Of a stretch of 64,000 bases of DNA, positions 1 to 64,000 are shown in pieces (the stretch's first letter is position 1; the number at the start of each line of letters is the position of its first letter). The position numbers and the translations under genes were made by a program. The DNA is from a virus: IMG/VR virus record IMGVR_UViG_3300029723_000002, positions 1 through 64,000 of that record. One strand, written 5' to 3'. The notes under the pieces were generated by a model, which worked only from the letters and a program-made list of their open reading frames with translations, did not search any database and was not told the DNA's origin.

Positions 1-381
1 TACTCTCATTTTTTCTAAGGTTCTATACGCCGTTTTAATAAGACTAAGAATTCTTGAAGAATCTTTTATTTCTTGATACTTTCTACAAGCTGCTCTAAAA
101 TCTGGATCATTTCACTCATCATCTGTTAATCCACTATCTTCTAATGCTGCTAAATGTCTTTCTTGCTCAAGATATTGCTGATAAGGACTTTTTCAATCTA
201 TCATCAGCCATATATACTTAAATTCTTTTCAAGCTCTTAATCTTTTTAAACCCTTTGGGTCCTCTTTGCATTTATTGCGTTCAGGATCTCAAAGGGTTTT
301 AAATTCATTAATTAACAAGATTCCATATTCATTTATGCGTAACGAACCAGTTGCGTTGTCATAAAGAAATATATCTTGCAT
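1..381 (-). CDS. hypothetical protein, 5' part only (gene runs off the window start); 5 in-frame TGA codons
   Basis: Minus-strand translation from ATG (plus 379-381 cat) gives MQDIFLYDNATGSLRINEYGILLINEFKTLWDPERNK...TAYRTLEKMRV with no TAA/TAG down to position 1. TGA is read as W. Not in the ORF track because TGA fragments it. Confidence 0.45.
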
Positions 382-431
382 TATTTTTTCTTGTTAAGTA
401 AACCTCCCAGACGATATATACCTAAATCTTT

Positions 432-1022
432 TCACCTTTGTTGGTAGAATTTATAATCAGGATGATTTTTTCCAACTACTATTTCCAGATCTGGAAGTGG
501 ATTAGAAACTTTAAAGGTAGTGTCTCCTGATGGACGTATATCTCGTTCAGTATACACACCTCCACTATGAACTCGGTCCATTTGTCTTCCCGAAGGAGAC
601 TTAACTCTCTGAAGAGTTCTAGTTCTGCCATCACCTAAGGATGGCAAAGCGGTGTGTGGAGCACGCCAATTAAAAGAATAATTCCAAGGTGTTAGAAGTC
701 ATTTTGACCAGGTTTTTACGCCGTCTTGACCTTTTATAATCTTAGCATTCTTTTTATTACATCCACAATCAGAAGTTTTACCTCCTTTTTTGTAACAGTT
801 TACTAAATAAGCTAATTTACCGCCTTTTTTAAAAAGCTCTGATTTAGGAGCTTCCGTTTCAGTTTTAAATTCTTCCATTAATCGACTTATTTCATTCATT
901 CCTTCTTTCGTTTTAGAGATTTGGTTTAAAGCAGAAACAATTTCTTCTGGAGATTTACCTTCTAATTCCTTTATTTTGGTCGGTAACCACTCAATAAAAG
1001 CTTTAAGCTCTTGTTCTTCCAT
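432..1022 (-). CDS. hypothetical protein; track ORFs 432..647 and 699..1022 fused across an in-frame TGA at 699-701
   Basis: The two track ORFs are in the same frame and separated only by TGA. Codons 648-698 were checked and contain no TAA/TAG. The real stop TAA at 1053-1055 separates this gene from the upstream gene. Confidence 0.5.
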
Positions 1023-1052
1023 ATTATATTGAATTATTTGACTTATTATTTA

Positions 1053-1340
1053 TTACTTGAAAAACTTAGGATCACAAGATCTAAAGTTCTTTTCAAGTTC
1101 TGTTAGTTTACCATCAAAGTGAATTAAATCTTTAGTTGAAAAAACAGCTTCTTGTAGATCCATATTAGTATTAAACCATCTACATTTAATTCCTTTAAAC
1201 ACATTATTTAATTCATCATTATGTTTAAAAGTTTTTGTAACTTTTTCAACTACATACATAATAGGAGCATTTAATTGTACATGTTTTAATGTTACAATAT
1301 CTCCTGGTTTAAAAAATGTTTTTTCAATTTCTTCAATCAT
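1053..1340 (-). CDS. hypothetical protein (95 aa)
   Basis: Track ORF. Its stop/start is tightly coupled to the neighbouring gene. Confidence 0.45.
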   Translation of the reverse strand: MIEEIEKTFFKPGDIVTLKHVQLNAPIMYVVEKVTKTFKHNDELNNVFKGIKCRWFNTNMDLQEAVFSTKDLIHFDGKLTELEKNFRSCDPKFFK

Positions 1341-1341
1341 A

Positions 1342-1863
1342 CTATTTATCTTTTTCTAATACTCGACATATAACATTTTGCTCACTTAGAGCATAATAGC
1401 CTCTAGTGTCAAACGGCACTGGGACGGCAGTGTTTCTATAATATATATCTTCGCCAACCTTAACATATTTACATTCAGGTCCAACTGATATAACATGACC
1501 ACATGCAATAAATTCTTCTGCATCTTCCTGTTCGCCACTTTCGTGTGATTTATATGTTCGATTAACATCAAATCCTCCAATTAATAAACCAGATGCTGAG
1601 GTTTTTAACTTTCTATAAGGATTTTTATTATATGGTTTTAAAATAATAGTATATCCTGTGGCTGCTAAATATTTATTATCACAGTTTTTTGCACCCTCAT
1701 TAAGTTCTACTAACCTAGCAGCTAAAGCGAGTTGCTCTTGTTCTTCTTGTTGTTTTAAGGTTTCTAATTCTTCTTTTGTAGGTTCAGTATTGTTTTTGAG
1801 ACCAATGCCCATATAATGGGTTCCTACGGCTTCCATGTGTGTGTTTCCTAAAATATTACTCAT
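1342..1863 (-). CDS. GroES-like co-chaperonin (Hsp10/phage gp31-like), tentative
   Basis: The pattern ILKPYNK...SGLLIGG...HESGE...GHVISVG...VKVGEDIYY...ICRV resembles the GroES mobile-loop and beta-barrel signature. Judged by eye only. Confidence 0.4.
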   Translation of the reverse strand: MSNILGNTHMEAVGTHYMGIGLKNNTEPTKEELETLKQQEEQEQLALAARLVELNEGAKNCDNKYLAATGYTIILKPYNKNPYRKLKTSASGLLIGGFDVNRTYKSHESGEQEDAEEFIACGHVISVGPECKYVKVGEDIYYRNTAVPVPFDTRGYYALSEQNVICRVLEKDK

Positions 1864-1890
1864 AATTCATAAACATTAAATTAAACATTA

Positions 1891-2160
1891 TCATAAATTT
1901 ATAATACAGTGTGCATTTTGCACTCTGGTCTTCGCGCTGATCCTGCATCCGCAGCCTCTTGTAAATCCCAATTTTGGTTTGTCTGAAACTTCTTTATCTT
2001 TATTAATATATAAATTAGGATTACAAATTGCACCAATTGGTCCCTCCTTATATAAGGGACAGGTTTTACAGATTTTTAATCTTTGTTCTGATAAAGATTC
2101 ATTTCTTCCTAAAACTTCATTAACATGACCATTAATTATATCTCCTACCTTCATACTCAT
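1891..2160 (-). CDS. small Cys-rich (zinc-ribbon-like) protein
   Basis: Track ORF with CKTCP...CGCRIS cysteine pairs. Confidence 0.4.
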   Translation of the reverse strand: MSMKVGDIINGHVNEVLGRNESLSEQRLKICKTCPLYKEGPIGAICNPNLYINKDKEVSDKPKLGFTRGCGCRISAKTRVQNAHCIINL

Positions 2161-3101
2161 TAAAATTTAATAGGTTTATCTCTATCTAGTTCTGTTTTGA
2201 TTTTTATCGATCTCTTATAATGCTTTAACATTCTCTCTACATCATCTTTAAGATATTCACATTTATATTCAGTAACTTTATTATTATGATCAGTGTGAAC
2301 TATCCTTAATGATTTAATTTTAAATTTTGGATTTATTTGTTTAAGTAAATAAGCGTATAACGACAACTGTAAAGAATAATGATAAAAATTACAATCCATT
2401 AAATTATTTAATGGAAATTTCATAGTTTGATATTTACGAGTCGTTTTATCAAAATAAGATTTTTGTTTTATTTCTCTATTAGTCTTGTAGTCAACAATAT
2501 AGACGTCATTCCCATCAATAATCAACAGATCTATTTGACCTGCAATACGTAATAATCCATCCTTTGACTTTACACTAATTAAGTATTCAGGATACACTCC
2601 TCTTGGCAGATCAAGTTTATAGTAACCTTTTTTACAAGTAAATTTTCCTCCTAGTCCAAATTTTTTTAAATCCTGTTCTTCTGATTTATAAAATTGATTT
2701 TCGTATTCAGCATGTATTTTAGTCCCTCTTTCACAAGATTTATTTTTTTCATCTTCATATCCCTGAAGGATTTCAGCTCGTTTGTCTTCAAAGACAACTG
2801 GATCTAGTCCCAACTTCTCTATAAGACTCGGATCTCATCTTTTTGTTGTTAATAAAACAGGCTTTAATGATGAAAAAATTTCAGGCTTTAGCAATGCTTC
2901 AGCAGCTTTATATGCTGATCAAAATGCTGAGTCAAATGGGTTAGTATAATTATGTATCAACGTAGTAACTGATACATAAGGAATATTATCTTGCTTATCT
3001 ATGTAGATATGTTTATCATCAGAATAAATAACATTATCATCCTCTTTATCTACCTTATAACCATTAACATATTTTACTTTTGCATTATCTAATTTAGGCA
3101 T
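2160..3101 (-). CDS. PD-(D/E)XK family nuclease (RecB/Cas4-like) with 2 in-frame TGA
   Basis: Motif GQIDLLIIDGNDVYIVDYKT (D...D/E-x-K). Track ORFs 2160..2813 and 2919..3101 are in the same frame and were joined through TGA at 2919-2921 and 2835-2837. Intervening codons were checked and contain no TAA/TAG. The start is ATG at 3099-3101. Confidence 0.55.
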
Positions 3102-3126
3102 ATTAATTTCGTTGTATTAAATATTT

Positions 3127-3735
3127 TATTTCACCGCTATCTGTATATAAACGTTGTACAATAGTTTCGACATCTATATCTTTGGGTATAGAAGCTCAAG
3201 TAACACCAAAAATTCCAATATCTTTTCCTGTATTATCCTTAATAAGAATACAAGCTAAATAAGCAACATTATTTTTAGCTAGTTGCTCATATAATACTCT
3301 ATCATACTTCTGTAATTCGTTTAAATCTCCCACAAATAAGTTATGATCCTTAAGATAATAAGGAAGATTTAGTCATGTTAAATTAAAATCATTGTATTGA
3401 GTTTGAACTGGTTCTAAATTAGAACGAGTTAACTCAAATCTCATTGTTCCATGTTGTCAGTCCATAATCCCATTATGGTACTGAATTATTCAAACGCGGT
3501 CTGCTCTATATTTATAGAGATATGTTGGAAGATTATTTTTAATTTGGCGATCTAATTCTGCTCTTTCATGTAGTTCAATATCGTGTTTTTCTATTACAAA
3601 CTTATTATACCTTTCAAATATATATTCAGGATCAAAACAAAGCCGTAAAGAAAAACTTAATATTATTAATAACATTGTAGCTTTAATAATATTAAACACT
3701 CCATATTGTTTTATATAATTTAAGAGAGTTCCCAA
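3127..3735 (-). CDS. hypothetical protein, about 202 aa, 4 in-frame TGA
   Basis: Track ORF 3490..3735 ends at TGA. Codon-by-codon extension continues to TAA at 3127-3129 (...LYTDAGE*). Confidence 0.45.
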
Positions 3736-3923
3736 TCAAGAGAGGCCAGAATCAATATTAGGTTGTTTTTTCATTATTATAAGTAATCATATTGTTAATC
3801 AATTTAATACTAATCGCAAATATACAACATATATAGCTATTATCCAAATAATTTAAATGTTTATTTGCAAATGAGTTATAGATTGGTTATCTTTGCATAA
3901 TAACAATTATAAATATATTTATT

Positions 3924-4199
3924 ATGAGATACAATAACGATATTTTAAACAAAATAATTTCTACAACATCAGAAAAAGTAGACAACAAAACTCATCTAGA
4001 TAATATTATGAATGGTTATCTAGAAATGATGAAGAAAGGCAGTAAAATTCATATCAAGAAAGCTAATCGTGGAAAATTTACTGCTTACTGTAAAGGAAAA
4101 GTGACCTCAGAATGTATTACAAAAGGTAAAAATTCTCCTGATCCTAAAGTTAGAAAGATGGCTACATTTGCTGCCAACAGTCGTAAGTGACATAAATAA
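3924..4199 (+). CDS. small basic protein
   Basis: Track ORF 3924..4190 ends at TGA. Readthrough adds WHK, then TAA at 4197-4199. Confidence 0.4.
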
Positions 4200-4450
4200 T
4201 GAAAAATAACTTCTTTATTAAGATGTTTACGGCACATTCAGGTTTATCAAGTAAACGAGTGTGTGGATTTATTGGATGGATAGTATGTCTTTTTATTTGT
4301 ATATGATGCACGATATATACTATTCAAGCACCTATAATTGCTGATACTTTATTTATCTGTAGTGCTGCTTTATTAGGAGTAGATGCTGTTATGAGACCTT
4401 TTTATAAACACAAAAACCAAAATGACAAAGAAGATAGTAAAGATTCTTAG
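4199..4450 (+). CDS. small hydrophobic membrane protein (holin candidate), 1 in-frame TGA
   Basis: ATG overlaps the upstream TAA. MKNNFFIKMF...GFIGWIVCLFICIW... Two hydrophobic segments. Stop is TAG at 4448-4450. It sits immediately upstream of the endolysin. Confidence 0.4.
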
Positions 4451-4559
4451 ATGAATTTGAGAATTTCCACAATGTCTACTAGGTATAGTTCTTATAAACT
4501 TATATAAAGCTCAGTATATTAGTACTTATAAGAAAATAGATTTCTATATTACAGATAGA

Positions 4560-4808
4560 ATGAAAGGTGGTATATCATGTGGTCTTTATGTAATACTACA
4601 TAAAGAATTATATGCTAATAAAAATAATATTCTGCATGAATGAGGTCATACTAAACAATCATTATATTTTGGATGATTATATCTTCCAATCATTGGATTA
4701 CGTAGTGGTGTACATGCACTAGTGCATAGTAAAGTCTGTAATAAACTACAGAAATATACTCATTATTGAACAGAAAAGTGGGCAGATAAATTAGGAGGAA
4801 TTAAATAA
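4560..4808 (+). CDS. small protein with 3 in-frame TGA (lysis-cassette member, function unknown)
   Basis: MKGGISCGLYVILHKELYANKNNILHEW... The stop TAA at 4806-4808 overlaps the ATG of the next gene. Confidence 0.35.
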
Positions 4809-5245
4809 TGTTAGCTAATAAATATTTTGATGTTAAAGAATTAGTTCCTAAAGAAGTATATGAGGAACTTGGAGATCAAGGATCTCTAAATTTATTAAAT
4901 CCTATTGCATTAAAAGCCTTAGAAGAGGTTAGAGAAATATTGGGTGTCCCATTAATTTGTAATAACTGAGCAGCTGGTGGCTCAAGAAATTATTGTGGAT
5001 ACCGACAAGAAAATTGCCCTATTGGAGCTAAAGCAAGCCAACACAAAAGAGGTAATGCATTTGACTTAATATGTAAAAGTAAATCAGCAAGACTTATGAG
5101 ATATGAACTTGAACAGAATAAATCTAGATTAACATATCCAATTAGAATAGAAAAATGAGATCAAAAAGGCAATGAAACAACGTGATTACATATTGATACA
5201 AAGAGTTTTACAGGAAATGGTAAAATTTATTTCTTCAGGGCGTAA
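4808..5245 (+). CDS. peptidase M15 family (zinc D-Ala-D-Ala carboxypeptidase-like) endolysin, 3 in-frame TGA
   Basis: The sequence NNW AAGGSRNYCGYRQENCPIGAKASQHKRGNAFDLI matches the Peptidase_M15 signature (G-G-x-R...S-x-H...G-x-A-x-D). The reading frame was checked through to TAA at 5243-5245. Confidence 0.65.
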
Positions 5246-5537: not shown

Positions 5538-5978
5538 TCAAATAAAGTATAGTTTATTATCTTTTTCTTCCATTACTAAATCCCCTCTTTCATTCTGATC
5601 AAAATGAACCATTTCGTGACATATAATGGATTCTAAAGAGACTCCAGGATCTTCTCTTATAATTAAACTATAAGTGTGAGGAACTATGTTTTTATATAAA
5701 ATAGCTTGTAATTCTATATCCTTAGTTGAATATTTATTTAATATGCTATTATTAGAATATATTGTTATATTAGCTGTATCATACCCCATTATTTTATTTC
5801 CAATAACTTTCACTAAGTCAGTAATATCATAATCTCTTGGAGATTCAATAAGACTAGTTACTTGAAAGGTTTCAGGAAAGGTAAATGTATTTCTTTCTTT
5901 TTTCTTACTCATTAGTAGTATTATTAATATAATAAACAATATACCAATGATTATTAAAGGTATATATCAAGTTTTCAT
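5538..5978 (-). CDS. HExxH zinc metallopeptidase-like protein with N-terminal membrane anchor; 1 in-frame TGA near the N-terminus
   Basis: Track ORF 5538..5939 contains IICHEMVHF. In-frame upstream extension through TGA reaches ATG (plus cat 5976-5978): MKTW YIPLIIIGILFIILIILLMSKKK... Confidence 0.5.
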
Positions 5979-8200
5979 TATGGCCTCCTATAATTCATTC
6001 ATTTTGTTTGAAACTCTGGGAGATCTTTATTTATAGATTGTTCATATGGCATAGTTCCATCAATTAATCCTCGAATATAACCATATCTTAATCAATTTCC
6101 TCTTAATGTGTCTTTATTAAAGACTGTTTGTTCAGTAATTCATCGATTAACTAGATTCGGATCATTGTAATCAGAGTATTCCGAAAGTAAATTTAATGTA
6201 CCTCCAATTTTTGCTCCCATATATTTTAGGTGTAATAATGCTGATTGAAAATTTTCAGGAAGCTTATTTACATCTACATTATATTTTGCAGCAGTATCTT
6301 TTACTACTTGCCATTCACTGTCTACAGCTAACTTATCAATAAATTTAATATCATCTAATGATAACTCATTTTTTAAAGATCTCTCATAGATATCTGGAGC
6401 TTTCTCTTTAAGTAGTTTATCACTAACCCCATGACCAATCAGCATTAATCCATTTTTCGCATAATTCGGATCTTTATATCACGACAAATGCCTTTTTATG
6501 CCCTCAAATGATCCTATTTGTTGCTGAACAATATCTAAATCTAAATTTGAATAAGTTTTTGGAGCTTGTCAGTTTTTATTAGCTCTATCAAACGATTTTT
6601 GTTTTGGAGGTTCTATTGATGGAATAAATTTACCACTGTTCTGAAATTTAGGAATAATACCTCCTAATTTGGCACTTTTAACGTTATCGTTTTTCTTTAC
6701 AGGAGCCTTTGCTACATCATTTAATAAGAATAATAAAAAATCATCATTGTATCTATTAAATAAATCAGGATCTCCCTCTGATTTATAATGACGAAACATA
6801 GTAGCATCTTCTAAATGCCAATCTTTAGTAGATCCAGGATAAATCGAAAAATCAATTTTATCAACTACTTTAGCTACTTTCTTACCTGTATTGTTATTTT
6901 TAAAAGTATATCCATATTGTATTTTTTGAGTCTGTTTATCTCTAAACTCCTCAATTTCTTTCTCAGTAAAGACATGTGTGGGATCAATATTATGCTGTCT
7001 TCTAAATTGCATTAACCTAGAATAAATCTCAGCAGGATTATCTAAATAATCATCCTGAGAAACATGTATAGTGTGAATAGGTCTACGTTTCTCGTATTCT
7101 TTAATAGTGTCGATTATAAAATAAGGATTCGTAGAATGAGCTAATTCATGAGCTGCTATTTCACTTACAGGTACTTTACTATTAGCTTTTACAACTAAAT
7201 AGTGATCCTCTGGATTATAAAAACCTTCTTTATTTTCCATAAGCTTATCAGAAATATCGTACCTAAGTAACTTACCCAGAGGACCATTGACAACTTGTTT
7301 ATACTCTTCTTGTTCCTCGGGACCAGAGTTATATAAATATGTATCAACAGAAGTTAATCTGTCATTTAATCAATGGTATCCTAATGTTTTACTCTGTAAT
7401 CATTTTGGAAGTGATGACCGCTCTCATAGATTTTTATTAATAATATGTCTTCTTTTATTATACCAGTTAGTCATTCATTCTTGAGTCGACTCAATGTCTT
7501 CTCGATCTGTTCAGCGATCCTTAATTCTTCCACCTTCTTGTAACTTTTTTAGAATACCTCCTAGTTTAGAATTTTGTATCATCTTGTGTAATACAGACTG
7601 ATACTTAGGATCAGTAGCATAACCACCTCGTGCTACTCTAGATGCAAAATCATTCACAGATCCAGAAAATGCTCTATATCTCTTATTATTTAATAAGTTA
7701 ATCTTATAATTAGCATAATCTTCTAAAGAAGAAAAATCCTTAAATTCCTGATTTAATCTTATATCCTTACCATTAATAACTTCTCGTGTGCTAGCAACAG
7801 TACCTTTACCTTTGATCCCTCCAAAATTGAATAATCCAGAAGGCTTTTTACCTCAAGCTGATTCCAACCCATCTTGTGCTACTAAAGCCTTAGCAAATGT
7901 GGGATTTAATCCTTTTTGCCTTAGTAACCTTTCATATATAGGAGTCATTATTGATTTAAACTCTTCCTTAGAAGTAAATTTTTTAATCGGTTTCTTAACT
8001 AAAGACTGATATTCTTCTATGGGAGTTTCTTGTATACTTAAATCAATAGAAGACTCAACTGAATTTTCTTCTGGAATATCAGAAGCTTCTTTAGTAACTA
8101 AATATTTAGGAGTATATTCAGATACAGGAACAGGTCTGGATAAAGAATAGTCTGTATTAAAGCTGTCCTCTCGTATATAAGGTCTATATGTTATATCCAT
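5978..8200 (-). CDS. large virion-associated peptidoglycan hydrolase: N-terminal FlgJ-type glucosaminidase domain plus HExxH metallopeptidase-like domain; 741 codons with about 11 in-frame TGA
   Basis: Track ORFs 7853..8200, 6569..7240 and 6140..6445 are all in one frame. Every codon between them was translated and no TAA/TAG was found from the ATG (8198-8200, preceded by in-frame TAA at 8219-8221) to TAA at 5978-5980. The N-terminal stretch ...AQDGLESA W GKKPSGLFNFGGIKG...YRAFSGSVNDFASRVARGGYATDPKY matches the Glucosaminidase (PF01832-like) ESGWG...NN[LF]FGIK...YATDP pattern. The middle carries HELAH. Confidence 0.6.
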
Positions 8201-8261
8201 AATAATGTAGTTTATTAATTATCTTGCAAATATAATAATTAATAAACAGTATTGCAAATAA

Positions 8262-17483: not shown

Positions 17484-17627
17484 TATATTTATTTATATTT
17501 AACCTTTCAAGCTTCAGTAAACTTGGATAATTTGCTCAAATCGAGAGGTATACATAGATTAACTCAATGACCAAGTAAGAGAGTTAGTATTTGCTGCGAT
17601 GGTGGAATAGGTAGACACGAGGGACTT

Positions 17628-18451
17628 TAACAAATAAATTCATTTTTTATTTGGTATAGATAAAGCTTTTTAATATCTTTGTATACAATAAATATATAAA
17701 GAATATGTCAAAAGTAAAATGAACCAAAGAACTACTTGAAAAAATAGTACCTGAATGTTATTCATATGCAGAGGTGCTAAGAAGAGTGGGATTAAAGCCT
17801 ATGGGTAGTAATCCAAAGACTTTAATTAAAAAATTAAATGAATTTAACATAGATTATTCACATTTTACAGGACAAGGATGAAATAAATACGGACATCCAA
17901 GTTTTGGAAACTCAGGAAAAGCACTTACAAGTGTGTTGAATAAAAATAGTTCTTTGCCTTCTTCAAAGGTTAAAGAAAGATTACTAAATAATCACTTGAA
18001 AGAGAATAAGTGTGAAGTATGCGGTATTACTGAATGACAAGGTTCTCCAATTATATGTGAATTACATCACATTAATGGAGACACAACTGATAACAGGATT
18101 GAAAATTTACAAATATTATGTCCTAATTGTCATAGTCAAACAGATAATTTTAGACGCAGAAATGTGAAAAAGGTAGTGAGCACTCAGAAGGAAACTTCTG
18201 ATGTGAATGTAGGCTAATTCGGCGAAGGTATCAGCCTTATAAATGATAATAACGCCGAGCTAAGTAAGTAGAAGGAATTTTCGTTTTTGTTCGTAATTCT
18301 TAATATATCGTCCAACGGGAGTGTATGTATACTAGCACCGACGCGATAACTTCTACTTTAAATGTGTAGAGACTATACACCTACCTCCTAAACTGAAAAG
18401 CATGGAGAAGACATAGTCCACGTAATTAGCTGATTCTCAGGCTATTACGAG
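17628..18451 (+). mobile_element. group I intron (824 nt) carrying an HNH homing endonuclease ORF
   Basis: Core elements seen downstream of the ORF: P4 pairing ttcggcg...cgccga, an R-like gtagagactata and an S-like gaagacatagtcca. The last nucleotide is G. Confidence 0.6.
17705..18217 (+). CDS. intron-encoded HNH homing endonuclease (170 aa), 3 in-frame TGA = Trp
   Basis: MSKVK W TKELLEKIVPECYSYAEVLRRVGLKPMGSNPKTLIKKLNEFNIDYSHFTGQG W NKYGH...CEVCGITE W QGSPIICELHHINGDTTDNRIENLQILCPNCHS. The GQGWNK and EW tryptophans are encoded by TGA. Confidence 0.7.
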
Positions 18452-18525
18452 AAAATCCCTTGGGCAGTGATGCCCGTGCGAGTTCGATTCTCGCTCGCAG
18501 TACAAAAATTTAATTTTGTTGTGAT

Positions 18526-19359
18526 ATGATGATTATAGATAAAATTAAAAAGATGTTAGGATACAATATATTAACCTTAAGGCAAAATAAAGAAACAGAT
18601 ATCGATGATTATGATATTGCATTAATTAAGTTATGTAAGATGTTTCGTATTAATATCAAACATCAACAATTTTTTGCAGATCATATTGTTGATTCTGTTA
18701 AGATTCCATATCATCCATACGATTATTGTGAAAAGTTATTAATAGACGATTTATATAGAAGACCTTCAATTAAAAGAAATCATCATTTAATATTCTTTCA
18801 ATATCTAGTAAGACTATTATGCCAAAAAGAGGAAATCTCAAGTAGAAGAATCAATACTTTTGAGTATATTGGTACTTATATGCTTATTAAATACAATAGA
18901 GAATATATCCAAGAGTTGATTAAAAAATGGAGTTCTCCAGAATGTGATCCTTGTTTCCATGTTTGGCAAGATTGTGTAAAATACTATCAAGCATTTCGGG
19001 TTAACTATATGTTTAATAGTTATGACATTAATCTAAGAAAAGCAAGGAAAATCTTTTCACTAAATTCAAAATCAGTGGACTTCGAATGGTATGTTTGGGA
19101 TAATAGTGCCAGTTGGTTATATACCTGGTTTGCAGAAATCACTAAACAGCATAAAGTTTATAGATCGTCACATTCAACAGTAAAAGATAGACTAACTCAA
19201 TGTTTTAATACTCTTGAAATCACCTATACAAAAAATAAAAGTATCATTAAAAGCGCTTATAAAAGAGCGTGTTTAAAATCTCATCCTGACAAAGGTGGTA
19301 GTCAAGAAAAATTCATTGAAGTTACTCAAAGTTACGAATACATAATGACACATGTGTAG
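18526..19359 (+). CDS. DnaJ (J-domain) protein
   Basis: The C-terminal AYKRACLKSHPDKGGSQEKFIEVTQSYEYI carries the HPD motif of J-domains. Confidence 0.55.
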   Translation: MMIIDKIKKMLGYNILTLRQNKETDIDDYDIALIKLCKMFRINIKHQQFFADHIVDSVKIPYHPYDYCEKLLIDDLYRRPSIKRNHHLIFFQYLVRLLCQKEEISSRRINTFEYIGTYMLIKYNREYIQELIKKWSSPECDPCFHVWQDCVKYYQAFRVNYMFNSYDINLRKARKIFSLNSKSVDFEWYVWDNSASWLYTWFAEITKQHKVYRSSHSTVKDRLTQCFNTLEITYTKNKSIIKSAYKRACLKSHPDKGGSQEKFIEVTQSYEYIMTHV

Positions 19360-19621
19360 TACACAAGAATTACTTAAACCTAAAGGCTATAAAGGATCCA
19401 ATGATCTTTCTGAAATTATTAACTGATTACACTCATATGGAATATTCATAGAGGTGGGAGTACGATGAAATGAAGACGGAACTTTAATGCAAGGATATTT
19501 TGGAAAACTCTGATTACCTCCATATGAAAATATGTGAATCAGTCCATCTTATATTACATTTTCACAAGCAGTTGATACTGTTATCAGTAAAGCTTTAGCC
19601 TTTTTGCCAGATAGTAAATAA
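19352..19621 (+). CDS. hypothetical protein (89 aa) with 5 in-frame TGA
   Basis: The ATG overlaps the end of the DnaJ gene. MCSTQELLKPKGYKGSNDLSEIIN W LHSYGIFIEVGVR W NEDGTLMQGYFGKL W LPPYENM W ISPSYITFSQ... Stop is TAA at 19619-19621. Confidence 0.35.
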
Positions 19622-41117: not shown

Positions 41118-41480
41118 ATGAAAAGTTGAAATTTTATAACACATAAACAAAAATTACACTGAGGATATAGGATCTTACTAATGGAGAATCAAGGTAAAGC
41201 ATTTGGCAGCATTTACTGATATTTTGATGAGCCTAGAGATCTTTATATTGATATGATTAGTGTTTCAGAAGAAAGTCAACAAAAAGGATTGGGCACATTC
41301 TTATTGAAGAAACTAGAACACATTTGTGTTAATGATTTGTCTGCTGAAAAAATTTCTTTATGAACATTCAAGAATAGTTGAACAAAAAAATGGTATAATC
41401 GTTGTGGATATAAGGATGCAGAACCTAATGAGTCAGAACCAGAAACAATTTGAATGGAAAAAAGAATAAATTCATTTTAA
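41118..41480 (+). CDS. GNAT family N-acetyltransferase (120 aa), 6 in-frame TGA
   Basis: YIDMISVSEESQQKGLGTFLLKKLEHICVNDLSAEKISL W TFKNS W TKK W YNRCGYKD matches the GNAT motif A/B pattern. The frame was checked from ATG 41118 to TAA 41478-41480. The gene is invisible in the ORF track. Confidence 0.55.
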
Positions 41481-48692: not shown

Positions 48693-48763
48693 GCCTTTGT
48701 CGTTCAATGGTAGGACAGCGCTCTTCAAAAGCGTGTATGTGAGTTCGAATCTTGCCAAGGGTG
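48693..48763 (+). tRNA. opal suppressor tRNA: tRNA-Trp-like body with anticodon UCA (reads UGA as well as UGG)
   Basis: Hand-folded, 71 nt. Acceptor gcctttg/caagggt. D-arm gttc-aatggta-ggac, as in Trp tRNAs. Anticodon stem gcgct/agcgt with loop cttcaaa (U33, UCA, A37). T-arm gtgag-ttcgaat-cttgc. Discriminator G73, which is the Trp identity base. Confidence 0.7.
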
Positions 48764-48793
48764 CTAACTGATTAAAAACTAACAAGTTATAAT

Positions 48794-51804: not shown

Positions 51805-51955
51805 TGGAAAGATTATTCTTGAGGATCACAACTTAAATAAATTTCAAGAAGATTTTGCTCAACTACTATATAAATATCAAACTGTTTTCAAGGGAGAAAT
51901 AAGAAGTTATAGTTTTGAGGAATGCGAAATAATAGAACCAGAAGTTAGTGATTAA
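51785..51955 (+). CDS. small protein (56 aa)
   Basis: MVDFVLNGKIILEDHNLNKFQEDFAQLLYKYQTVFKGEIRSYSFEECEIIEPEVSD*. Confidence 0.3.
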   Translation: MVDFVLNGKIILEDHNLNKFQEDFAQLLYKYQTVFKGEIRSYSFEECEIIEPEVSD

Positions 51956-52388
51956 AATTTATACTGATGGGAGTTATAAACCTTCTACAAATCAAGGAGG
52001 GTATGCTTCAATCATTATTAATGATGATAAAATAGTTAAAATTTTACAACAAGGATATATAAATACTACAAACAATAGGATGGAAATTATGGGAGTTTTA
52101 AAGGCGTTAGAGTTTTTTAAGACTCCTCAAGATATTATTATCTATTCAGATTCAAGTTATGTAGTAAGTAGTATGTCTAATAATTATGTACAGAGATGAG
52201 TATCAGATAATGATACATCAAAAAAGAACATGGATTTGTGATCTAAGATCCTAAACTTATCAAATTTTCATAATGTAAAGTTTGTATGAGTTAAGGGTCA
52301 TAATGATAATAGATGAAACGAACTAGCTGATATTTATGCAAATATATCAGCTACTGTCGAAAACCCACAAATAGACTTAGAAGACTAA
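51948..52388 (+). CDS. rnhA: ribonuclease HI (146 aa), 4 in-frame TGA at conserved Trp positions
   Basis: IKIYTDGSYK...NNRMEIMGVLKALEF...IIIYSDSSYVV...VQR W VSDNDTSKKNMDL W SKILNLSNFHNVKFV W VKGHNDNR W NELADIYA matches YTDGS, TDS.Y, DLW and W.WVKGH...NE.AD of RNase HI. The start appears to be GTG at 51948. The stop is TAA at 52386-52388. Confidence 0.75.
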
Positions 52389-57822: not shown

Positions 57823-57917
57823 TATATAATATTGAAAGTTAATAACTTATAATATAAAACTTATTAAACCATTTTTAGTAAGTTTCTTTAATATTTCTAT
57901 AAATTTTCGTATCTTTG

Positions 57918-59144
57918 ATGGACAGAACCGAAAGACAAAAAGTAGGAATAAGACGATGAATTGATGGGGGTGGAACAGGCACTCTTGCTTGGAGTACGGG
58001 TTTAGGTAAAACTTATGCTACAATGCTCCTAATAAAGGAATTACATAAGGCGAATCCCACCTTAGTTGTTTTAGTCGCGGTTCCTACTAATGTGTTAAAA
58101 GAACAATGAGTTAGAGAGTTGGTCAAATACCAGCTCTTTTCTGTCTGTAAGGTAGAAGTCTTTAACACTATTGTAAAACATAGTTATACAGTTGATTTAT
58201 TTGTAATAGATGAGTTACATAATGCTGCTAGTCCTGTACATATCTCGATGTTTGAAACAGTCAAGTACAGGTATTTTTTAGGCTTAACTGCTACGTTTGA
58301 ACGATTAGATGGCAGACATAAATTATTAGAACAGTACACTTCAATTTGTGATAAAATTACTATAGAAGAAGCTGTTCAGAATAAGTGACTATCTGATTAT
58401 CGAAACTACAAGGTAATACTCGATGTTGATCTGACTAAATATAATGAATGAAATCAAAAGTTCCAGTCATTATTTGCTTTATTTGATTTTAACTTTGATT
58501 TAGCTATGAAGTGTGTTCAAAGTCCAAGAATTGCAGCTTTATATGCTAAAAAACTTGGAAGAACACTAAAGGAAATAAGAGGCATTGCCGCTGCCTGAAT
58601 GAAAATGTTACGTAATAGAAAGTCCTTTGTAATGTCTCACCCTAAGAAGCTTGAAATAGCAAATAAAATTTTAGATGCTCGAAAGGATAAAAAGTGTATT
58701 ACATTTTCAGCTACAATCAAAGATGCAGAACAATTTAAATCTAGAGGAGCTCTTATACTACATAGCAAACAGAAGAAACAAGAGAATAAACAGATTATTG
58801 AAACCTTTAACAGTCTAACTTCTGGAGTGTTAAGTACTTCAAAATCTGCAGATGCTGGTTTAGATGTTAAAGGGTTAAGTGTAGGAATTATTCTTAGTGG
58901 TGACAGCTCTAAAACACGTACTACACAGAGGATCGGAAGAGCAATTCGTCAGGAGGAAGGCAAAATAGCAGAAATATTTACATTGGTTATTAGTAAAAGT
59001 ATTGAGGAGAACTGATATTCTAATGCTAATGTAAATCAACAGTATATTACTATAAATGAGAATCAATTAGATATTATACTTAATGGTGGAGAAGTGTCTA
59101 CTAAAATAAAGAGAGGTATTGCTGATACAAAATATAGATTTTAA
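57918..59144 (+). CDS. SF2 (DEAD/DEAH-like) helicase (408 aa), 6 in-frame TGA
   Basis: Motif I GTGLGKTYA. Motif II LFVIDELHNA. Motif III GLTATFER. Motif VI TTQRIGRAIRQ. The frame was checked from ATG 57918 to TAA 59142-59144 and includes track ORFs 58119..58388 and 58599..59015. Confidence 0.55.
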
Positions 59145-59189
59145 ATAAAAGATCTAACGTATTACGTTTGTTTACATTAACGGTAATAA

Positions 59190-59771
59190 ATGGAGTTAGA
59201 TACAATAATTAATATAATAACTCAATATAATTTAACAGGAGATGAACTCTTGTTAATTTATTTAACTCTTTGTGCTCAGGATGGTCATCCTGAGTATTTT
59301 GCAAAGTGATTCAATGGTGGAGGTCAAACAAAACTAAAGGATCTCTTTATTTCTTTAAAAGAAAAAGGAATAATACACAAAAATTATGATCCTTCGTCTT
59401 ATATACCAGATGAAATTGAATTTAATAAAACTTTTTTAAAACGATATTTTAAACTGGCTGGGGAGCTAGGTAGAGAGTTATTTGAGGCTTACGAACCATT
59501 TATTAAAGTTAATGGAGCATTATACAGCTTAAAAAACTACTCTAAAAAGTTTTATTCTCTTGATGAATTTTGTTTTTGATACTCTTCTACTATTGGACAC
59601 AGTGTAGAAAAACACAAAAAGATAATTGAAATCCTTAAATGAGCTAGAGAAAATAACTTAATAAATATAGGCATCTTAGAATTTGTCAGTTCACATAAAT
59701 GAGTTGATTTAGAAAAACTGAGATTAGAAGGATTCAATAAACAAACTATCAGTTCTATATATCTTGACTAA
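59190..59771 (+). CDS. hypothetical protein (193 aa), 4 in-frame TGA (replication-module member)
   Basis: MELDTIINIITQYNLTGDELLLIYLTLCAQDGHPEYFAK W FNGGGQTKLKD... The frame was checked through to TAA at 59769-59771, which overlaps the next ATG. Confidence 0.4.
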
Positions 59772-60910
59772 TGTTTGGAGTTGATAATTTATTTGAACAA
59801 ATAGAACGAGGTAGAGAAGGGAAAAATATTGGTTTGAGTACAGGAATGCCAAAAATGGATAGTTATACAGGTGGTCTACAAAAAAGCTGCTATACTCTAA
59901 TTTTTGGCTTGTCTGGGAGCGGTAAGTCCAGCTTTGTGCTATATACTCATATATATAGGCCGCTAAAAGATTATCCAGAAAAAAATATTAAACTAATTTA
60001 TTATTCTCTTGAAATGAGCGAAACTGTTTTATTAGCTAAGTTATTGTGTCTTTATATTTATGAGGAATATCATTATGTACTAAGCTATAAGGATATTATG
60101 TCTTGATCTGAAATACTAGATGACGAATCTTATGAATATGTTAAAAAAGGCAAAGCTTGGTTAAATTCGATTTCAGACAAGCTCATTATTTATGATAAAG
60201 CTTTAAACTCGAAGTTTTTTTATAAATCAATGAAGGACAATCTTGAACGTTGAGGGACATTTAAAGATTCGCCCGATGGAAGAAGAACAATTTATGTTAA
60301 AAATGATCCAGAACAGTTTGTTGAAGCAATTATTGATCATATAGGTTTAGTAAGACCATCACCAGGTAGTACTAAAAAACAAGAAATTGATGAATTGTCA
60401 ACATATGCAGTATCATTAAGGGAAAAATGTTCATGCTCTTTCTGTGTGTTAATGCAAGAAAATAGAAATTCTTCTGATATGGATAGAAGAAAAGCTGATT
60501 TAACAGAAAGCAGTGCTGAAGATATCAAGGATTCAGGTAACCCATATAATGATTCAGAAGTATGTATTGCGATATATAATCCATTAAAACATAAATTAAC
60601 TTCTCATAGAGGATATCCAATTATTGTTGAAGACAGTCAACCAGGAGCATTTATTGGTCTTAGAGATCGATATAGATCAGCCATTTTAATTAAAAATAGA
60701 TTTGGAGAGGCTGATAGATTAGTTCCATTAAATTTTTTTGGCGAAATTGGACTCTTTAAAGAACTACCAAAAGTTCAAGAATGTTCAGACTGAAAAGATT
60801 ATTGTTATTTAAAAGATAACATTAGAAAAAAGAATAAGGAAGAAAAAGATTCAACTACTAAAGAAGTAGAAGTAAAAGATAGTTCAAAAAAGTTAACATA
60901 CAGTTTTTAA
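59771..60910 (+). CDS. DnaB-like replicative helicase C-terminal (RecA-fold) domain protein (379 aa), 3 in-frame TGA
   Basis: GLSTGMPKMDSYTGGLQKSCYTLIFGLSGSGKSSFVL matches the DnaB H1/Walker A region. Continues in frame through track ORF 60395..60793. Confidence 0.5.
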
Positions 60911-60912
60911 AT

Positions 60913-62756
60913 ATGGCTATCGAATTACCAAAAACAAAAATTCCTGCAGCAACCCAAGATCCTAAGTATCTGATTCTCTTTGGTTTGCCAAAGGTCAATC
61001 TGGCCCATTAGTTTAGTAATAGACTAAGTTGTATCGGGGAAAGTCGATGAATGCTAAAATTTTCTTACTTTGGTATTGGAATATACGGAAAATTTAACTA
61101 TATTTGTGTAGTTAAATTAAAAATTATATGAAAATAAACCAATTAAAGTATACAGAACAAGAAATTAAAAAGTTTGGTGAATATTATAAGTTAGGCCATT
61201 CTTTAAAAGAAACTGCAGAATATTTTAATGTTAATTATCACACATTAAAACAAAATTTGATACGATTTGGATATAGAACTCCAATAAAAAAATTAAGTAA
61301 CCAAAGAGTAACTAGTATTACTTATTTTGATTGTATTGACACTCATGAGAAAGCCTATTTTTTAGGACTGTTATTTGCAGATGGATACATTTCAAAAACT
61401 CCTTATGGAGTTAATATTGGAATTGCTCTTCAGTTACAAGATAAATATATCTTAGAGCATTTAAAGAGAGAAATTAATGTGTCAAATAAAATTTCAGATT
61501 ATAAAAACAGTTCAAAATTTTCTGTAACATGCCAACATATGTATAAGATACTAAGGAGTTTAGGGATAAAAGAAAATAAATCACATCTAGATTACAAAAT
61601 TCCTAATATTGATGAAAATTTTATCAATTCTTTTATACTTGGATATTTTGATGGAGACGGTTGTATAACTATAAAATCTACGGGCTATAGCGTTGTTTCT
61701 ATTTGCTGTAACTCTAAATTATTTTTAGAAGATATACAAAAATATTTAAATAAGTTAAATATTGCAACCCGACCTATTACTACAGAAAAAAGAATGCATA
61801 ATAATTTATTTGTTCTATATCTTTCAAAGAAAGAAAATCAGTTAAAATTTATGAATTTAATTTATAAAAATAGTAATATATTTTTACAAAGAAAATACCG
61901 TAAATTTTTGCAAATATCGAGCTAACTATTATAATAATATATAATAGTAGTGTAACGCGTAGGAAGTGAACCTGTTTTACAGAATATAATCTTCCCAAGA
62001 GTCTCCGAAACTTTTATTAAAAGTTTAAAATGTACGCTGAACTTATAGGAAACTATAAGAACTATAGGATAAAAAGCCTATAGGATAACAATTTGTGGAA
62101 AAACTACAATTTTAAGCACTCTAGAAAATAATCTAATTTTAGATACTGAATCAGGAAGTGATTATATTGATGCTTTAAAGGTTAAAGTATCTAGTGTAAA
62201 GGATATTAAGGAAGTTTGTAAAGCTATTATTGAGGCCAAAAGACCTTATAAGTACATTACTATTGATACTGTTACTGCATTGGAAGAAATTGTTAAACCA
62301 TTAGCCCTTAATTTATATAAAAACTCTCCTGTATTTGGAGAGAGGTTTGCTGATATAACTGATGTTACTGCTCTTCCTAATGGTCAGGGATATATGTGAA
62401 GTCGACAAGCTCTTGAAATGGTTATTGACATGGTATCTAAATGTGCTCCAAATATTATTTTATGTGGTCATGTTAAAGATGTATCATTAAATGAGGGTCT
62501 TGATGGCAGTGTTAAGGATTTAGACCTGACAGGTAAAGTTAAACGTATTCTTTCTGCTAGAAGTGATGCTATTGGTTTTTGTCATCGCGATACTAATGGT
62601 AACCTTTGTATTAATTTTGGTGGGGATGGTGAGATCCTTACTGGTTCAAGATGTCAACACCTAGCAGGTAAAGATATTATTGTAGCAGAGCGTCAGGAAG
62701 ATGGTTCATTTGTTTCACATTGGAATAGGATTTTTCCTTCATTAAGCAGTAAATAA
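60913..62756 (+). CDS. Sak4-like (AAA_24/RecA-like) recombination ATPase, split gene: exon 1 60913..60995, group I intron, exon 2 62096..62756; 1 in-frame TGA in exon 2
   Basis: Exon 1 is MAIELPKTKIPAATQDPKYLILFGLPK(gt|). Exon 2 is (t)GKTTILSTLENNLILDTESGSDY... The splice restores the Walker A GLPKVGKTT. The 5' exon ends with U and the intron ends with G. Confidence 0.55.
60996..62095 (+). mobile_element. group I intron carrying a LAGLIDADG homing endonuclease
   Basis: Its 5' segment resembles that of the intron at 53263 (caatctggccca... against agatttctgcctggct...). Shared core motifs gtgtaacgcgtag (61955) and aaaatgtacgctgaact (62029). Ends ...gataacaatttg. Confidence 0.55.
61128..61925 (+). 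CDS. intron-encoded LAGLIDADG homing endonuclease (265 aa)
   Basis: Two LAGLIDADG-type motifs: LLFADGYISK and ILGYFDGDGCITIK. Confidence 0.65.
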   Translation: MKINQLKYTEQEIKKFGEYYKLGHSLKETAEYFNVNYHTLKQNLIRFGYRTPIKKLSNQRVTSITYFDCIDTHEKAYFLGLLFADGYISKTPYGVNIGIALQLQDKYILEHLKREINVSNKISDYKNSSKFSVTCQHMYKILRSLGIKENKSHLDYKIPNIDENFINSFILGYFDGDGCITIKSTGYSVVSICCNSKLFLEDIQKYLNKLNIATRPITTEKRMHNNLFVLYLSKKENQLKFMNLIYKNSNIFLQRKYRKFLQISS

Positions 62757-62758
62757 TT

Positions 62759-63214
62759 ATGTTAAAAATTTCTTTTGATTTTGATGAAACAACTAATTCA
62801 GTTACTAATGTTAAGGTTGTAAAAACCGCATCAAAATTTGAGAATTTAGACCTACCTATAGTAGAATTGGGAGATAGTAAGTTAATTATGTCTCCTAAAA
62901 CAATTGAGTTGTTATCTGCCCAAATTGGGGATAGAATATCAGTAAATTATATTCAAAAAAATAACGAACTCACTTTTCCTGTGATAGGCAAATCTGAAGT
63001 ATTTACAGATAAAGAAGCAGGAAATAAATTAAGTAAGACAAACACAGTTTCATTTAGAGGATCACAAAAAACCTGTTTATCTCAATATGGCAACTTATTT
63101 AAATTAGAAGCCTTAAGGTCAGGAGTTTTTAAAATGGTTAAAATTGAAGAATCAGAATTGTCTGAAGCTGATCCTGAATTTAAAGAAGAAACTGAAATTT
63201 TAAACACAATTTAA
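62759..63214 (+). CDS. hypothetical protein
   Basis: Track ORF. Confidence 0.45.
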   Translation: MLKISFDFDETTNSVTNVKVVKTASKFENLDLPIVELGDSKLIMSPKTIELLSAQIGDRISVNYIQKNNELTFPVIGKSEVFTDKEAGNKLSKTNTVSFRGSQKTCLSQYGNLFKLEALRSGVFKMVKIEESELSEADPEFKEETEILNTI

Positions 63215-63230
63215 CTAAATTATAGAATTT

Positions 63231-63902
63231 ATGAGTATGTTCAATCTTGGTGGTGTAAAAGACGCCCGTGTAGTAAGTACTAATTATCTTAAACCTGGTA
63301 TTCATCAAGTTGTATTCAAAGGAATCCAAAAGGCAGAAATGTCTGATGCAACTATAAATGCTATTGAACTTCAATTTGAAGCAGTAGATGGTAGTGGGAT
63401 TCATAACGAACGTTTATTTGAACCTCGTTCAACAGAACGTGTTCCTAATCGATTTAATCCTTCTAATGAAGATCCATCACAAGCTGAACAATTTATGGTA
63501 AAAATTAAGCAAGTGATTGAAGCTTTAGACCCAGAATTAGGAAAACAAATTAATGAAAATGGTGAGAAATTTTCAGCTCCTGATTTTAATGGGTTTTTGA
63601 AGCTTCTGAAGAAATATTTGGACCCAAAAGTAGGCACTAAAACTTATATTAAATTAGTTCCTAATGGACGTTATGCAGGATTTCCTGGATTCCCTGCTCG
63701 TTGCTCAAAAGATGGAGGATTAATTATTACAACTACATTTATAGGAGAAAATTTGGTTCTCTCTTCTTATGAAAAGACACAAATTGATAATGCTTTAGCA
63801 GCTAAACCCACTCCTATGGGTACTAAAAATGAACTTGATGATTTAAAAGAAGCATTTCCTAGTGTAGACTCAGGTGATGATTCTGATGATTTGCCTTTCT
63901 AA
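63231..63902 (+). CDS. ssb: single-stranded DNA-binding protein with acidic C-terminal tail
   Basis: The C-terminus ...SVDSGDDSDDLPF matches the SSB amphipathic DDD(I/L)PF tail. It sits in the replication module after the helicase and Sak4 genes. Confidence 0.5.
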   Translation: MSMFNLGGVKDARVVSTNYLKPGIHQVVFKGIQKAEMSDATINAIELQFEAVDGSGIHNERLFEPRSTERVPNRFNPSNEDPSQAEQFMVKIKQVIEALDPELGKQINENGEKFSAPDFNGFLKLLKKYLDPKVGTKTYIKLVPNGRYAGFPGFPARCSKDGGLIITTTFIGENLVLSSYEKTQIDNALAAKPTPMGTKNELDDLKEAFPSVDSGDDSDDLPF

Positions 63903-64000
63903 AAAAAAAATAGTTTAGGTGGAATATACGTTAGAACCGATTATTATAACTAAAGACCTAATTCTAAATAAAGTAAGTGAGGAGACCTTAATGGAGCACT

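Follow-up and report, generated by a model that had tools for sequence, protein, structure and literature searches.

Ivanova and co-workers are said to have described, in 2014, stop-codon-recoded gut phages with phage-encoded suppressor tRNAs. Recoding of TGA to tryptophan (Trp) and of TAG to Gln occurs in many clades of gut phages, whose features include low GC content, rare TGA stops, suppressor tRNAs and recoding centred on lysis and structural genes; recoded intron endonucleases are found in their early genes, and standard-code relatives exist at >80-90% nucleotide identity (Borges et al., 10.1101/2021.08.26.457843). The Zeta-group crAss-like phages have genomes of 145-192 kb (Yutin et al. 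2021, PMC7886860), codes are used block-wise in the Lera phage (PMC12386605), and the Mgcod preprint describes a genome in contiguous blocks that follow either the standard code or opal reassignment (10.1101/2022.06.29.495998). A temporal switch of code has been proposed by others for such phages (10.1101/2021.08.26.457843; PMC7886860). We have analysed the use of TGA in positions 1-64000 of the virus record IMGVR_UViG_3300029723_000002 (64,000 nucleotides (nt), hereafter the window). An initial annotation, made from the sequence alone, had proposed that TGA is decoded as Trp throughout this stretch. TGA-to-Trp recoding is already well described for such phages, and the window is one more example.

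The window has much in common with the Agate, Jade and Sapphire clades of Borges et al. TGA means Trp, GC content is low, TGA stops are few, and recoding is partial, with genes on the lysis and structural side most affected. A recoded homing endonuclease lies in a standard-code region, the phage encodes a suppressor tRNA with anticodon UCA, tRNA(UCA), and the standard code is that of close relatives and of the probable host. The window differs from those phages in that its standard-code part is a block of accessory and tRNA genes, and no 'code-change module' with tryptophanyl-tRNA synthetase (TrpRS) or release factor 1 was found in it. Features shared with the Zeta group are related contigs of 106-178 kb, TerL and DnaB that match those of crAss-like phages, many tRNAs including tRNA-Sup(UCA), TGA as Trp in part of the genome, a PD-(D/E)XK nuclease, branches that differ in code, and dense introns with homing endonucleases, which in relatives split TerL as well. 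The TerL of a 98% identical relative has just 28-29% identity to that of named crAss-like phages, by database matches, and 39-45% to that of unnamed gut phages. Lera carries UCA and CUA suppressors, whereas only UCA was found here. The blocks in the Mgcod preprint represent the same phenomenon, to which the window adds small recoded islands (an intron open reading frame (ORF) and a GNAT gene) within a standard-code block. For specialists the details of interest are the recoded replication genes, the standard-code accessory and tRNA block, the islands in it, and TGA-TAA tandems where relatives have TAA.

TGA as a sense codon

Genes were called with a simple codon-usage caller in which TAA and TAG are the only stops (table 4). 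The window, with a GC content of 30.3%, has 103 genes under this call, and in-frame TGA is present in 36 of them (96 TGA vs. 142 TGG), being clearly internal in 24. Coding density increased from 0.695 with table 11 to 0.802 with table 4; 27 genes then reached 200 aa or more, as against 17 with table 11. A control in which TAG was read as sense gave a density of 0.685 and thus no gain. Full-length coverage of Pfam domains was obtained only when the TGAs were read across. The main recoded genes are the following.

5978..8200, minus: glucosaminidase and HExxH hydrolase, 740 aa, 11 in-frame TGA (Pfam Glucosaminidase, E = 3.6e-13)
51948..52388, plus: RNase H, 4 in-frame TGA, no TGG (Pfam RNase_H, E = 1e-25, full length)
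4808..5245, plus: M15-type endolysin, 3 in-frame TGA, no TGG (PHROG endolysin, E = 2e-18; weak Pfam Peptidase_M15_3 match)
3103..3819, minus: membrane protein adjoining the lysis genes, 5-7 in-frame TGA, no TGG
57915..59144, plus: XPB/RAD25-like superfamily 2 helicase, 6 in-frame TGA (Pfam Helicase_C and ResIII; PDB XPB, E = 8e-18)
59771..60910, plus: DnaB-like replicative helicase, 3 in-frame TGA (Pfam DnaB_C)
60913-60996 and 62097-62756, plus: exons 1 and 2 of a Sak4-like ATPase, with intron 60997-62096 and TGA 62397-62399 in exon 2
53385-54239 and 9559-10443: HNH genes, TGA-interrupted
2160-3101: PD-(D/E)XK nuclease, TGA-interrupted
55924-56691: metallophosphatase, TGA-interrupted

These results agree for the most part with the initial annotation. 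The genes that it named were recovered by profile matches where it had placed them and in the families that it had given, and its proposed comparison of tables 4 and 11 merged the fragments and lengthened the genes as expected. Its hydrolase gene is indeed shattered under the standard code, 11 TGAs dividing it into 12 pieces with table 11. TAA and TAG still act as stops, as it had stated; the TAG at 51306-51308 ends a gene. It had also counted at least 30 genes interrupted by TGA and never by TAA or TAG. Our call has 36 genes with in-frame TGA, clearly internal in 24, and the Sak4-like ATPase is split by an intron of about 1.1 kb in addition to its TGA.

The same TGA codons recur in at least six independent contigs, some of them from relatives of only 37-75% identity, and TGA alternates with TGG among the contigs; sequencing errors and pseudogenes are therefore excluded. 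For example, the hydrolase TGA at 7853-7855 is also TGA in L016 and L029, which are 37-40% identical, and in the 53% identical L016 orthologue of the membrane protein four TGAs are kept as TGA and one is TGG. TerL and primase are recoded in relatives too. The base that follows a sense TGA was examined for a context signal. It does not differ from the base following TGG or codons at large, in keeping with a general reassignment rather than site-specific readthrough. TGA is a sense codon in real genes of the window. Protein collections in the databases already hold versions of these genes in which TGA is translated, such as a 740-aa protein 98% identical to the hydrolase, which could not be translated under table 11. 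For annotation, table 11 is unsuitable because it shatters about a quarter of the genes of the window. Blind use of table 4 is also unsuitable, as it extends a few gene ends and does not recover intron-split genes.

Amino acid read at TGA

Relatives L001-L008 were retrieved with the DnaB-like helicase protein as query. Two of them, L005 and L007, whose DnaB is 37-41% identical to that of the window, served as the standard-code comparison set; in the orthologous region they have 9-10 TGA vs. 61-78 TGG, and their TGAs are mostly at ORF ends. Forty aligned cells lie opposite TGAs of the window. Trp, encoded by TGG, occupies 18 of these, followed by Phe (6), Tyr (4), Arg (3), Thr and Leu (2 each) and Asn, Cys, Ile, Ala and Ser (1 each); Gly is found in none. 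The BLOSUM log-likelihood was -86 for Trp and -126 for the next residue, a difference of about 40 natural-log units. At 4 of the 6 TGA sites of the XPB-like helicase both L005 and L007 have TGG, and AEQW of an archaeal XPB from the PDB stands opposite KEQ-TGA of the window.

Comparison with more distant proteins gave similar results. The hydrolase TGA at 7853-7855 is Trp in 120 of 120 database homologues, which are largely code-4 translations of other recoded phages, so that their Trp is not independent; TGG read in the DNA of relatives was used instead. The FlgJ structures from a PDB search do not cover the ESxWG motif, and E. coli FlgJ was therefore compared directly: its LESGWG aligns with LESA-TGA-G of the window, placing Trp opposite this TGA. 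In PDB alignments of RNase H, TGA 52239-52241 corresponds to the conserved DLW and TGA 52287-52289 to the Trp of WVKGH (E. coli, Shewanella); TGA 52197-52199 is Trp in 3h08, and the fourth is opposite Tyr or Glu. In homologues of the HNH protein encoded at 17705-18217, taken from cultured standard-code phages of Agrobacterium, Rhodococcus, Synechococcus and Gordonia, 7 of the 12 cells are Trp, 4 are Tyr and 1 is His. For the M15 endolysin no solved homologue was found in the PDB with which its TGA positions could be compared.

By these alignments the meaning of TGA is Trp rather than Gly, with TAA and TAG still used as stops. The choice of Trp over the Gly of code 25 in the initial annotation is in agreement with the cell counts and with the FlgJ, RNase H, XPB and HNH alignments. 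Its statement that TGA falls opposite Trp in every case was too strong: Trp is by far the commonest residue, and Phe, Tyr, Arg, Leu and others occur elsewhere. The three alignments that it had suggested reflect this. The hydrolase N-terminus gave Trp, RNase H gave Trp at 2-3 of its 4 TGAs and not at the remainder, and the HNH protein gave Trp in just over half of its cells, with Tyr and His in the others.

TGA is used in blocks

Gene strands in the window are mostly minus up to about 10.4 kb and plus from 10.6 kb onward. The use of TGA divides the same stretch into three blocks.

1-10443, mostly minus: block A, 32 internal TGA vs. 10 TGG, coding density 0.67 with table 11 and 0.90 with table 4
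10616-50134, plus: block B, 13 internal TGA vs. 108 TGG, coding density 0.71 and 0.75, respectively
50137-64000, plus: block C, 29 internal TGA vs. 24 TGG, coding density 0.68 and 0.89, respectively

The difference between blocks A and C together (61 TGA, 34 TGG) and block B is significant with Fisher P = 1e-16. Moreover, 12 of the 13 TGAs of block B are confined to three genes.

17705-18217: HNH gene, 3 TGA and no TGG, inside the intron of a tRNA-Leu(UAA) gene
19352..19621, plus: 89-aa ORF, 4 in-frame TGA and no TGG
41118..41480, plus: GNAT acetyltransferase, 5-6 in-frame TGA (Pfam Acetyltransf_1, E = 7e-11)

The 89-aa ORF has no protein family match, and its TGA codons are retained in close relatives. 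The GNAT gene lies directly 3' of tRNA-Gly(UCC) (41031-41102), and the 5' part of the ORF as first called overlapped that tRNA.

Block A contains lysis and peptidoglycan-hydrolase genes (M15 endolysin, glucosaminidase), the PD-(D/E)XK exonuclease and an endonuclease VII/HNH protein. To judge from relatives, the terminase gene would adjoin this block just past the left edge. Block C is a replication module of RNase H, XPB-like and DnaB-like helicases, Sak4-like ATPase and metallophosphatase, in whose orthologues L005 and L007 have TGG. Block B holds 65 genes, most of the tRNA genes and a transfer-messenger RNA (tmRNA) gene; its families include a DnaJ-domain protein, SPFH, radical SAM, AAA ATPases, an HD domain, a MoxR/CbbQ and VWA pair and an RNA-repair HAD domain. 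Judged by codon use, this 40-kb block is compatible with the standard code. The proposal that TGA is recoded throughout the window therefore fails for block B. The code-4-style reading of the initial annotation stands as to the meaning of TGA, and is confined to two blocks plus a few mobile and accessory genes. Among genomes of 97-99% identity, polymorphism from TGG to TGA was found at 2 of 97 sites in block B and at 5 of 34 in blocks A and C. This lower polymorphism suggests selection against TGA in block B, not a mere lack of time.

At two sites of block B the window has CGA (Arg) and close relatives have TGA: codon 32 of gene 15275-15994 and codon 173 of gene 19735-20355. These are either ordinary replacements between Arg and Trp or nonsense variants in the relatives.

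TGA is also enriched at the ends of genes. It is over-represented among the last five sense codons (9 observed, binomial P = 0.002), and 4 of 102 genes end in TGA-TAA (binomial P = 0.002).

1888-1893, minus: TGA-TAA tandem
12319-12324, plus: TGA-TAA tandem
32850-32855: TGA-TAA tandem
50344-50349: TGA-TAA tandem

Relatives have TAA opposite TGA 12319-12321 and TGA 32850-32852, and they have TGG at TGA 12304-12306, five codons upstream of 12319-12321 in the same gene. From these tandems and the TGAs aligned with TAA, it seems that TGA still is a terminator in some genes, or was one until recently, in every case backed up by a TAA or TAG 0-9 codons further downstream. UGA would thus not be free of terminator use everywhere, and the window is code-4-like in part only.

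The code also differs among relatives. L003, L016 and L029 are recoded, and L005, L006 and L007 have 5-10 TGA vs. 44-78 TGG, their TGAs being mostly single and near ORF ends. The standard-code L007 came from the same sample as close relatives of the window. The existence of these standard-code relatives suggests that the code changed recently.

The tRNA with anticodon UCA

A candidate for the molecule that reads UGA is encoded near the end of block B.

48693..48764, plus: tRNA with anticodon UCA (ARAGORN, labelled SeC, that is selenocysteine, only for its anticodon; Rfam tRNA model, 53 bits)

A UCA anticodon reads UGA and, by wobble, UGG. The gene starts 57 nt past the last large gene of block B and 1.6 kb before the first block C gene with an internal TGA. 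It specifies a canonical cloverleaf of 72 nt with a 7-bp acceptor stem, a short variable arm and discriminator G73. The short variable arm and the 72-nt cloverleaf rule out a selenocysteine tRNA. Among GenBank phages the gene has just one significant match, to an annotated tRNA-Trp in Gordonia phage GMA2 (81% over 53 nt, E = 2e-5), and it is 100% identical in the related contig 176639. We propose it as a Trp suppressor, most likely charged with Trp, that would enable the recoding. It is absent from the initial annotation. No tRNA-Trp(CCA) was found in the window by ARAGORN or by Rfam, including relaxed thresholds, and a scan of viral contigs for a version of tRNA(UCA) with a CCA anticodon returned only the UCA version. 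ARAGORN found 12 tRNA genes in the window and Rfam added 4; 15 Rfam tRNA calls reach the gathering score.

Directly upstream of tRNA(UCA), at 48650-48692, there is an AT-rich inverted repeat (TTTTTTATTATTTTT / AAAAATAATAAAA) together with a TATTTTTG motif, which could be a promoter or a processing signal.

The phage and its host

The window contains an endolysin, an exonuclease, a replication initiator and HNH proteins by PHROG matches, as well as several HNH or LAGLIDADG-type endonucleases, and its relatives are viral contigs of IMG/VR. TerL and primase were found in the flanking DNA of relatives. Contigs that are 97-99% identical at the protein level are 106-161 kb long, and those of more distant relatives 153-178 kb. 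The DnaB-like helicase and the TerL of the 98% identical relative match only crAss-like, Bacteroides, Flavobacterium, Cellulophaga and uncultured gut phages. Compared with GenBank phages at the nucleotide level, 20 kb of the window gave short matches only, and there is therefore no close named relative among them.

The promoter pattern of Bacteroidota, TTTG-N17-21-TAnnTTTG, occurs 13 times in the window vs. 3.2 +/- 1.9 expected, a fourfold enrichment that none of 100 shuffles reached. Eight of the 13 sites are correctly oriented and immediately precede the start of a gene or tRNA, among them one at the recoded hydrolase gene.

8227..8258, minus: promoter-like site TTTG-N17-21-TAnnTTTG, directly upstream of the hydrolase gene

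Another site, TTTG...TATATTTG at 3817-3848 (minus), lies by the membrane protein gene 3103..3819 and suggests that the true start of this gene is a downstream ATG. k-mer counts in intergenic regions gave nothing convincing as a shared phage-specific promoter. The window most likely comes from a gut-type phage with a large double-stranded DNA genome and a distant relationship to crAss-like phages. Because of the TerL and DnaB matches and the enrichment of the promoter motif, a crAss-like-related phage of Bacteroidota is the likeliest source, and the host is most likely a standard-code member of that phylum. One genome per bacterial species was scanned with a 39-mer of tRNA(UCA), with no match.

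Mechanism and alternative explanations

We consider it highly probable that TGA is recoded to Trp block by block, on a standard-code background, through the suppressor tRNA. Block B reads correctly under the standard code, since its Trp codons are TGG and TGA is absent or at gene ends, and it would be translated first, directly by the host machinery. In the lysis and packaging side (block A), the replication module (block C) and several mobile and accessory genes, TGA stands for more than half of the Trp codons. The phage tRNA(UCA), most likely charged with Trp and presumably by the host TrpRS, would insert Trp at UGA in competition with the host release factor 2 (RF2), and the TGA-containing replication, lysis and packaging-side genes would become productive only once this tRNA has accumulated. 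Early in infection TGA would terminate a few genes, with a TAA or TAG backup 0-9 codons downstream. We lean, with moderate conviction, towards a temporal switch of code as part of the explanation. Host-type promoter motifs are present at several recoded block A genes, which fits a control at the level of translation, though it is only suggestive. The window is a further, well-resolved example for the model in which a private suppressor tRNA separates two gene sets at the translation level.

Pseudogenes, assembly errors or low-level programmed readthrough, with no reassignment at all, might account for the many genes that are fragmented under table 11. However, TGA alone interrupts them, never TAG, a frameshift or TAA, which would be the commonest nonsense codon expected at 30% GC. 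The same TGAs are kept across different assemblies and in relatives of 37-75% identity, where they alternate with TGG; essential genes are hit (the helicases, and primase and TerL in relatives), and no readthrough context is seen. We rejected the pseudogene reading because of the conservation across independent contigs, and the whole group of explanations has a negligible probability. TGA could also have another meaning, be it Gly (code 25, that of Gracilibacteria and Absconditabacteria and their phages), Arg, Cys or selenocysteine. In favour are the label 'SeC' that ARAGORN gave to tRNA(UCA), the failure of tRNAscan to separate Trp from Arg in a related kind of phage (PMC12386605), and the 3 of 40 cells with Arg together with the CGA/TGA exchanges in close relatives. 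The lead of Trp in the likelihoods speaks against all of these meanings. Code 25 was rejected on the absence of Gly from the 40 cells, and Arg, Leu, Ser and Cys are single-base neighbours of TGA, expected as ordinary substitutions. Selenocysteine insertion was rejected because the tRNA lacks the long variable arm and 8-bp stem of the SeC type, because 96 TGAs occur with no special sequence context and because Cys occupies 1 of 40 cells. Taken together these other meanings are extremely improbable.

A uniform genetic code 4, shared with a host that itself reads UGA as Trp (Mollicutes-like, for example), would explain more. TGA as Trp is well supported, the low GC (30%) is like that of code-4 organisms, and every gene can be called with TAA or TAG stops. 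Like Mollicutes, some mitochondria and some endosymbionts, the window combines an AT-rich genome with a tRNA(UCA) that would read UGA and also UGG. In code-4 organisms, however, the reassignment is genome-wide and RF2 is lost, whereas here a large block avoids TGA, TGA occurs at gene ends and the change is carried by the virus. Outside the three islands the 40-kb block has a single TGA vs. 108 TGG despite 30% GC; under a true code 4 with AT pressure many of these TGG codons should have been converted. In addition, gene-end TGA aligns with TAA in relatives, the phage encodes its own tRNA(UCA), and orthologous genes are in standard code in relatives from the same sample. Hosts in the Bacteroidota, which use code 11, are indicated by TerL, DnaB and the promoter motifs. 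We rejected uniform code 4 on the TGA-poor block, the tRNA and the gene-end TGAs, and regard it as very improbable. The block pattern may instead be historical, block B being a recently acquired or exchanged standard-code module and the suppressor being present for all genes. This block is rich in accessory genes, tRNAs and mobile elements, gene content differs between close relatives, and a few TGAs have arisen in block B of relatives. Yet in GC content and strand organisation it matches the remainder of the window, it is common to several relatives at 92-99% identity, and the difference in TGG-to-TGA polymorphism was seen in the same genomes. Within it only the homing endonuclease in the intron, GNAT and one small ORF are strongly recoded; these islands suggest that TGA can be fixed there when the timing of a gene allows it. 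A historical origin thus seems unlikely to us.

Several points weigh against suppressor-mediated, block-wise recoding as outlined above. The assumed early or late order of the blocks follows solely from which genes they hold and where they lie, and replication genes (RNase H and helicases; primase in relatives) are recoded here, unlike in the described Agate and crAss-like examples. The Trp identity of tRNA(UCA) would follow from one BLAST match, G73 and the alignments, and its similarity to E. coli tRNA-Trp is 63% as compared to 66% for the tRNA-Cys of the window itself. Protein family searches found no TrpRS or release-factor gene in the window, and the host is inferred, not demonstrated. 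The few internal TGAs in block B of close relatives indicate that avoidance of TGA is not absolute, and block B might in theory have been acquired later, with too little time since then to drift towards TGA.

Introns and recoded mobile elements

The window and its relatives carry introns in tRNA-Leu, the Sak4-like ATPase, TerL, an AAA ATPase and tRNA(UCA). The first of these hosts the recoded HNH gene of block B.

17593..18503, plus: tRNA-Leu(UAA) with an 822-nt intron after U34 (ARAGORN intron mode; the exons form a clean cloverleaf)

At the corresponding site of the sister contig 182116 (L014, ~223-310) the tRNA-Leu(UAA) gene is uninterrupted and its anticodon stem differs, which is what a mobile intron with exon co-conversion would be expected to produce. 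The window itself has another tRNA-Leu(UAA) gene, an intact one, at 16065-16149. Homologues of the HNH gene are located in tRNA clusters of Rhodococcus, Gordonia and Synechococcus phages.

The intron of the Sak4-like ATPase splits the Walker A motif (GLPKV / GKTT) and holds an endonuclease ORF at 61128-61925 (phrog_4645); a tblastn search with the uninterrupted 247-aa orthologue of L001 recovered two 100% identical pieces in the window. A conserved core, CCAAGAGT ... AAAATGTACGCTGAAC ... GATAACAA(A/T)TTG(A/T)G, is common to the 3' region of this intron (61975-62096) and to 54249-54357. As the latter follows the HNH gene 53385-54239, that gene also seems to be intron-borne, and the gene 52799-53284 may continue in an exon that starts near 54358. 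Thirty-eight bases of this core (~54318-54355) are identical in the crAss-like phages cr7_1 and cr131_1. The gene directly to the left of gene 1-381 in relatives is a TerL split by an intron. One contig of 98% identity (L021 18936-22223) has TerL parts of 394 aa and >328 aa with a 301-aa LAGLIDADG-type ORF between them, and both parts as well as the ORF carry in-frame TGA. The window has an intact CbbQ/MoxR-like AAA ATPase gene with no TGA (45563-46741); in sister genomes (L009 and L011, 8109-9065) this gene is split by an insert with a 318-aa ORF that has 7 in-frame TGAs. This insert is another recoded mobile element in a standard-code gene.

The tRNA(UCA) gene itself is split in some sisters. 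Contigs 182116 and 179469, which are 97-99% identical, have a different tRNA(UCA) allele at the same locus, with A1-U72 and G73 (L009 11953-12698, IMGVR_UViG_3300045988_182116; L023, L024). A 675-nt insert between U34 and C35 ends in G and carries a 167-aa ORF with one TGA, and ARAGORN in intron mode rebuilds a clean cloverleaf. The split is at the same position as the intron of tRNA-Leu(UAA) in the window, and the site after U34 is that of the classical cyanobacterial tRNA-Leu group I intron. Neither near tRNA(UCA) nor in the introns did Rfam, at gathering and relaxed thresholds, recognise a group I intron, a hepatitis delta virus-like or theta ribozyme or any further regulatory RNA. If the sister tRNA(UCA) must be spliced to work, the code change in those strains depends on splicing, and this allele offers a testable handle on the timing of the switch. 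TGA might have two meanings in one infection, a stop that is always backed up in accessory genes and Trp in the replication, lysis and packaging-side sets; the amount of mature tRNA(UCA) would decide between them, with the mobile intron as a timer in the sisters if splicing is regulated or slow. We offer this as a tentative and rather doubtful possibility. No description of a mobile intron as a timer of a code switch was found in the literature searched.

Other RNA genes and side observations

Two further RNA genes lie in block B.

28856-29264: tmRNA (Rfam 73 bits, full length), with a predicted tag that ends ...VAYAA and is closed by TAG
20738-20820: tRNA-like gene (Rfam tRNA, 49 bits) with normal acceptor, D and T arms

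It is conceivable that the tmRNA is linked to readthrough of host UGA stops caused by the suppressor tRNA. In the tRNA-like gene a 9-bp hairpin with a GGCC tetraloop replaces the anticodon arm, which ARAGORN reads as an 11-nt intron; the gene is 95-99% conserved in three sister contigs. Finally, a run of small paralogous genes in block C (54479-54808, 54801-55136, 55129-55440 and 55671-55958) has a common N-terminal L(L/G)LD(E/Q)QY motif. Its copy number differs among sister genomes, and most of the stretch is missing in L001.

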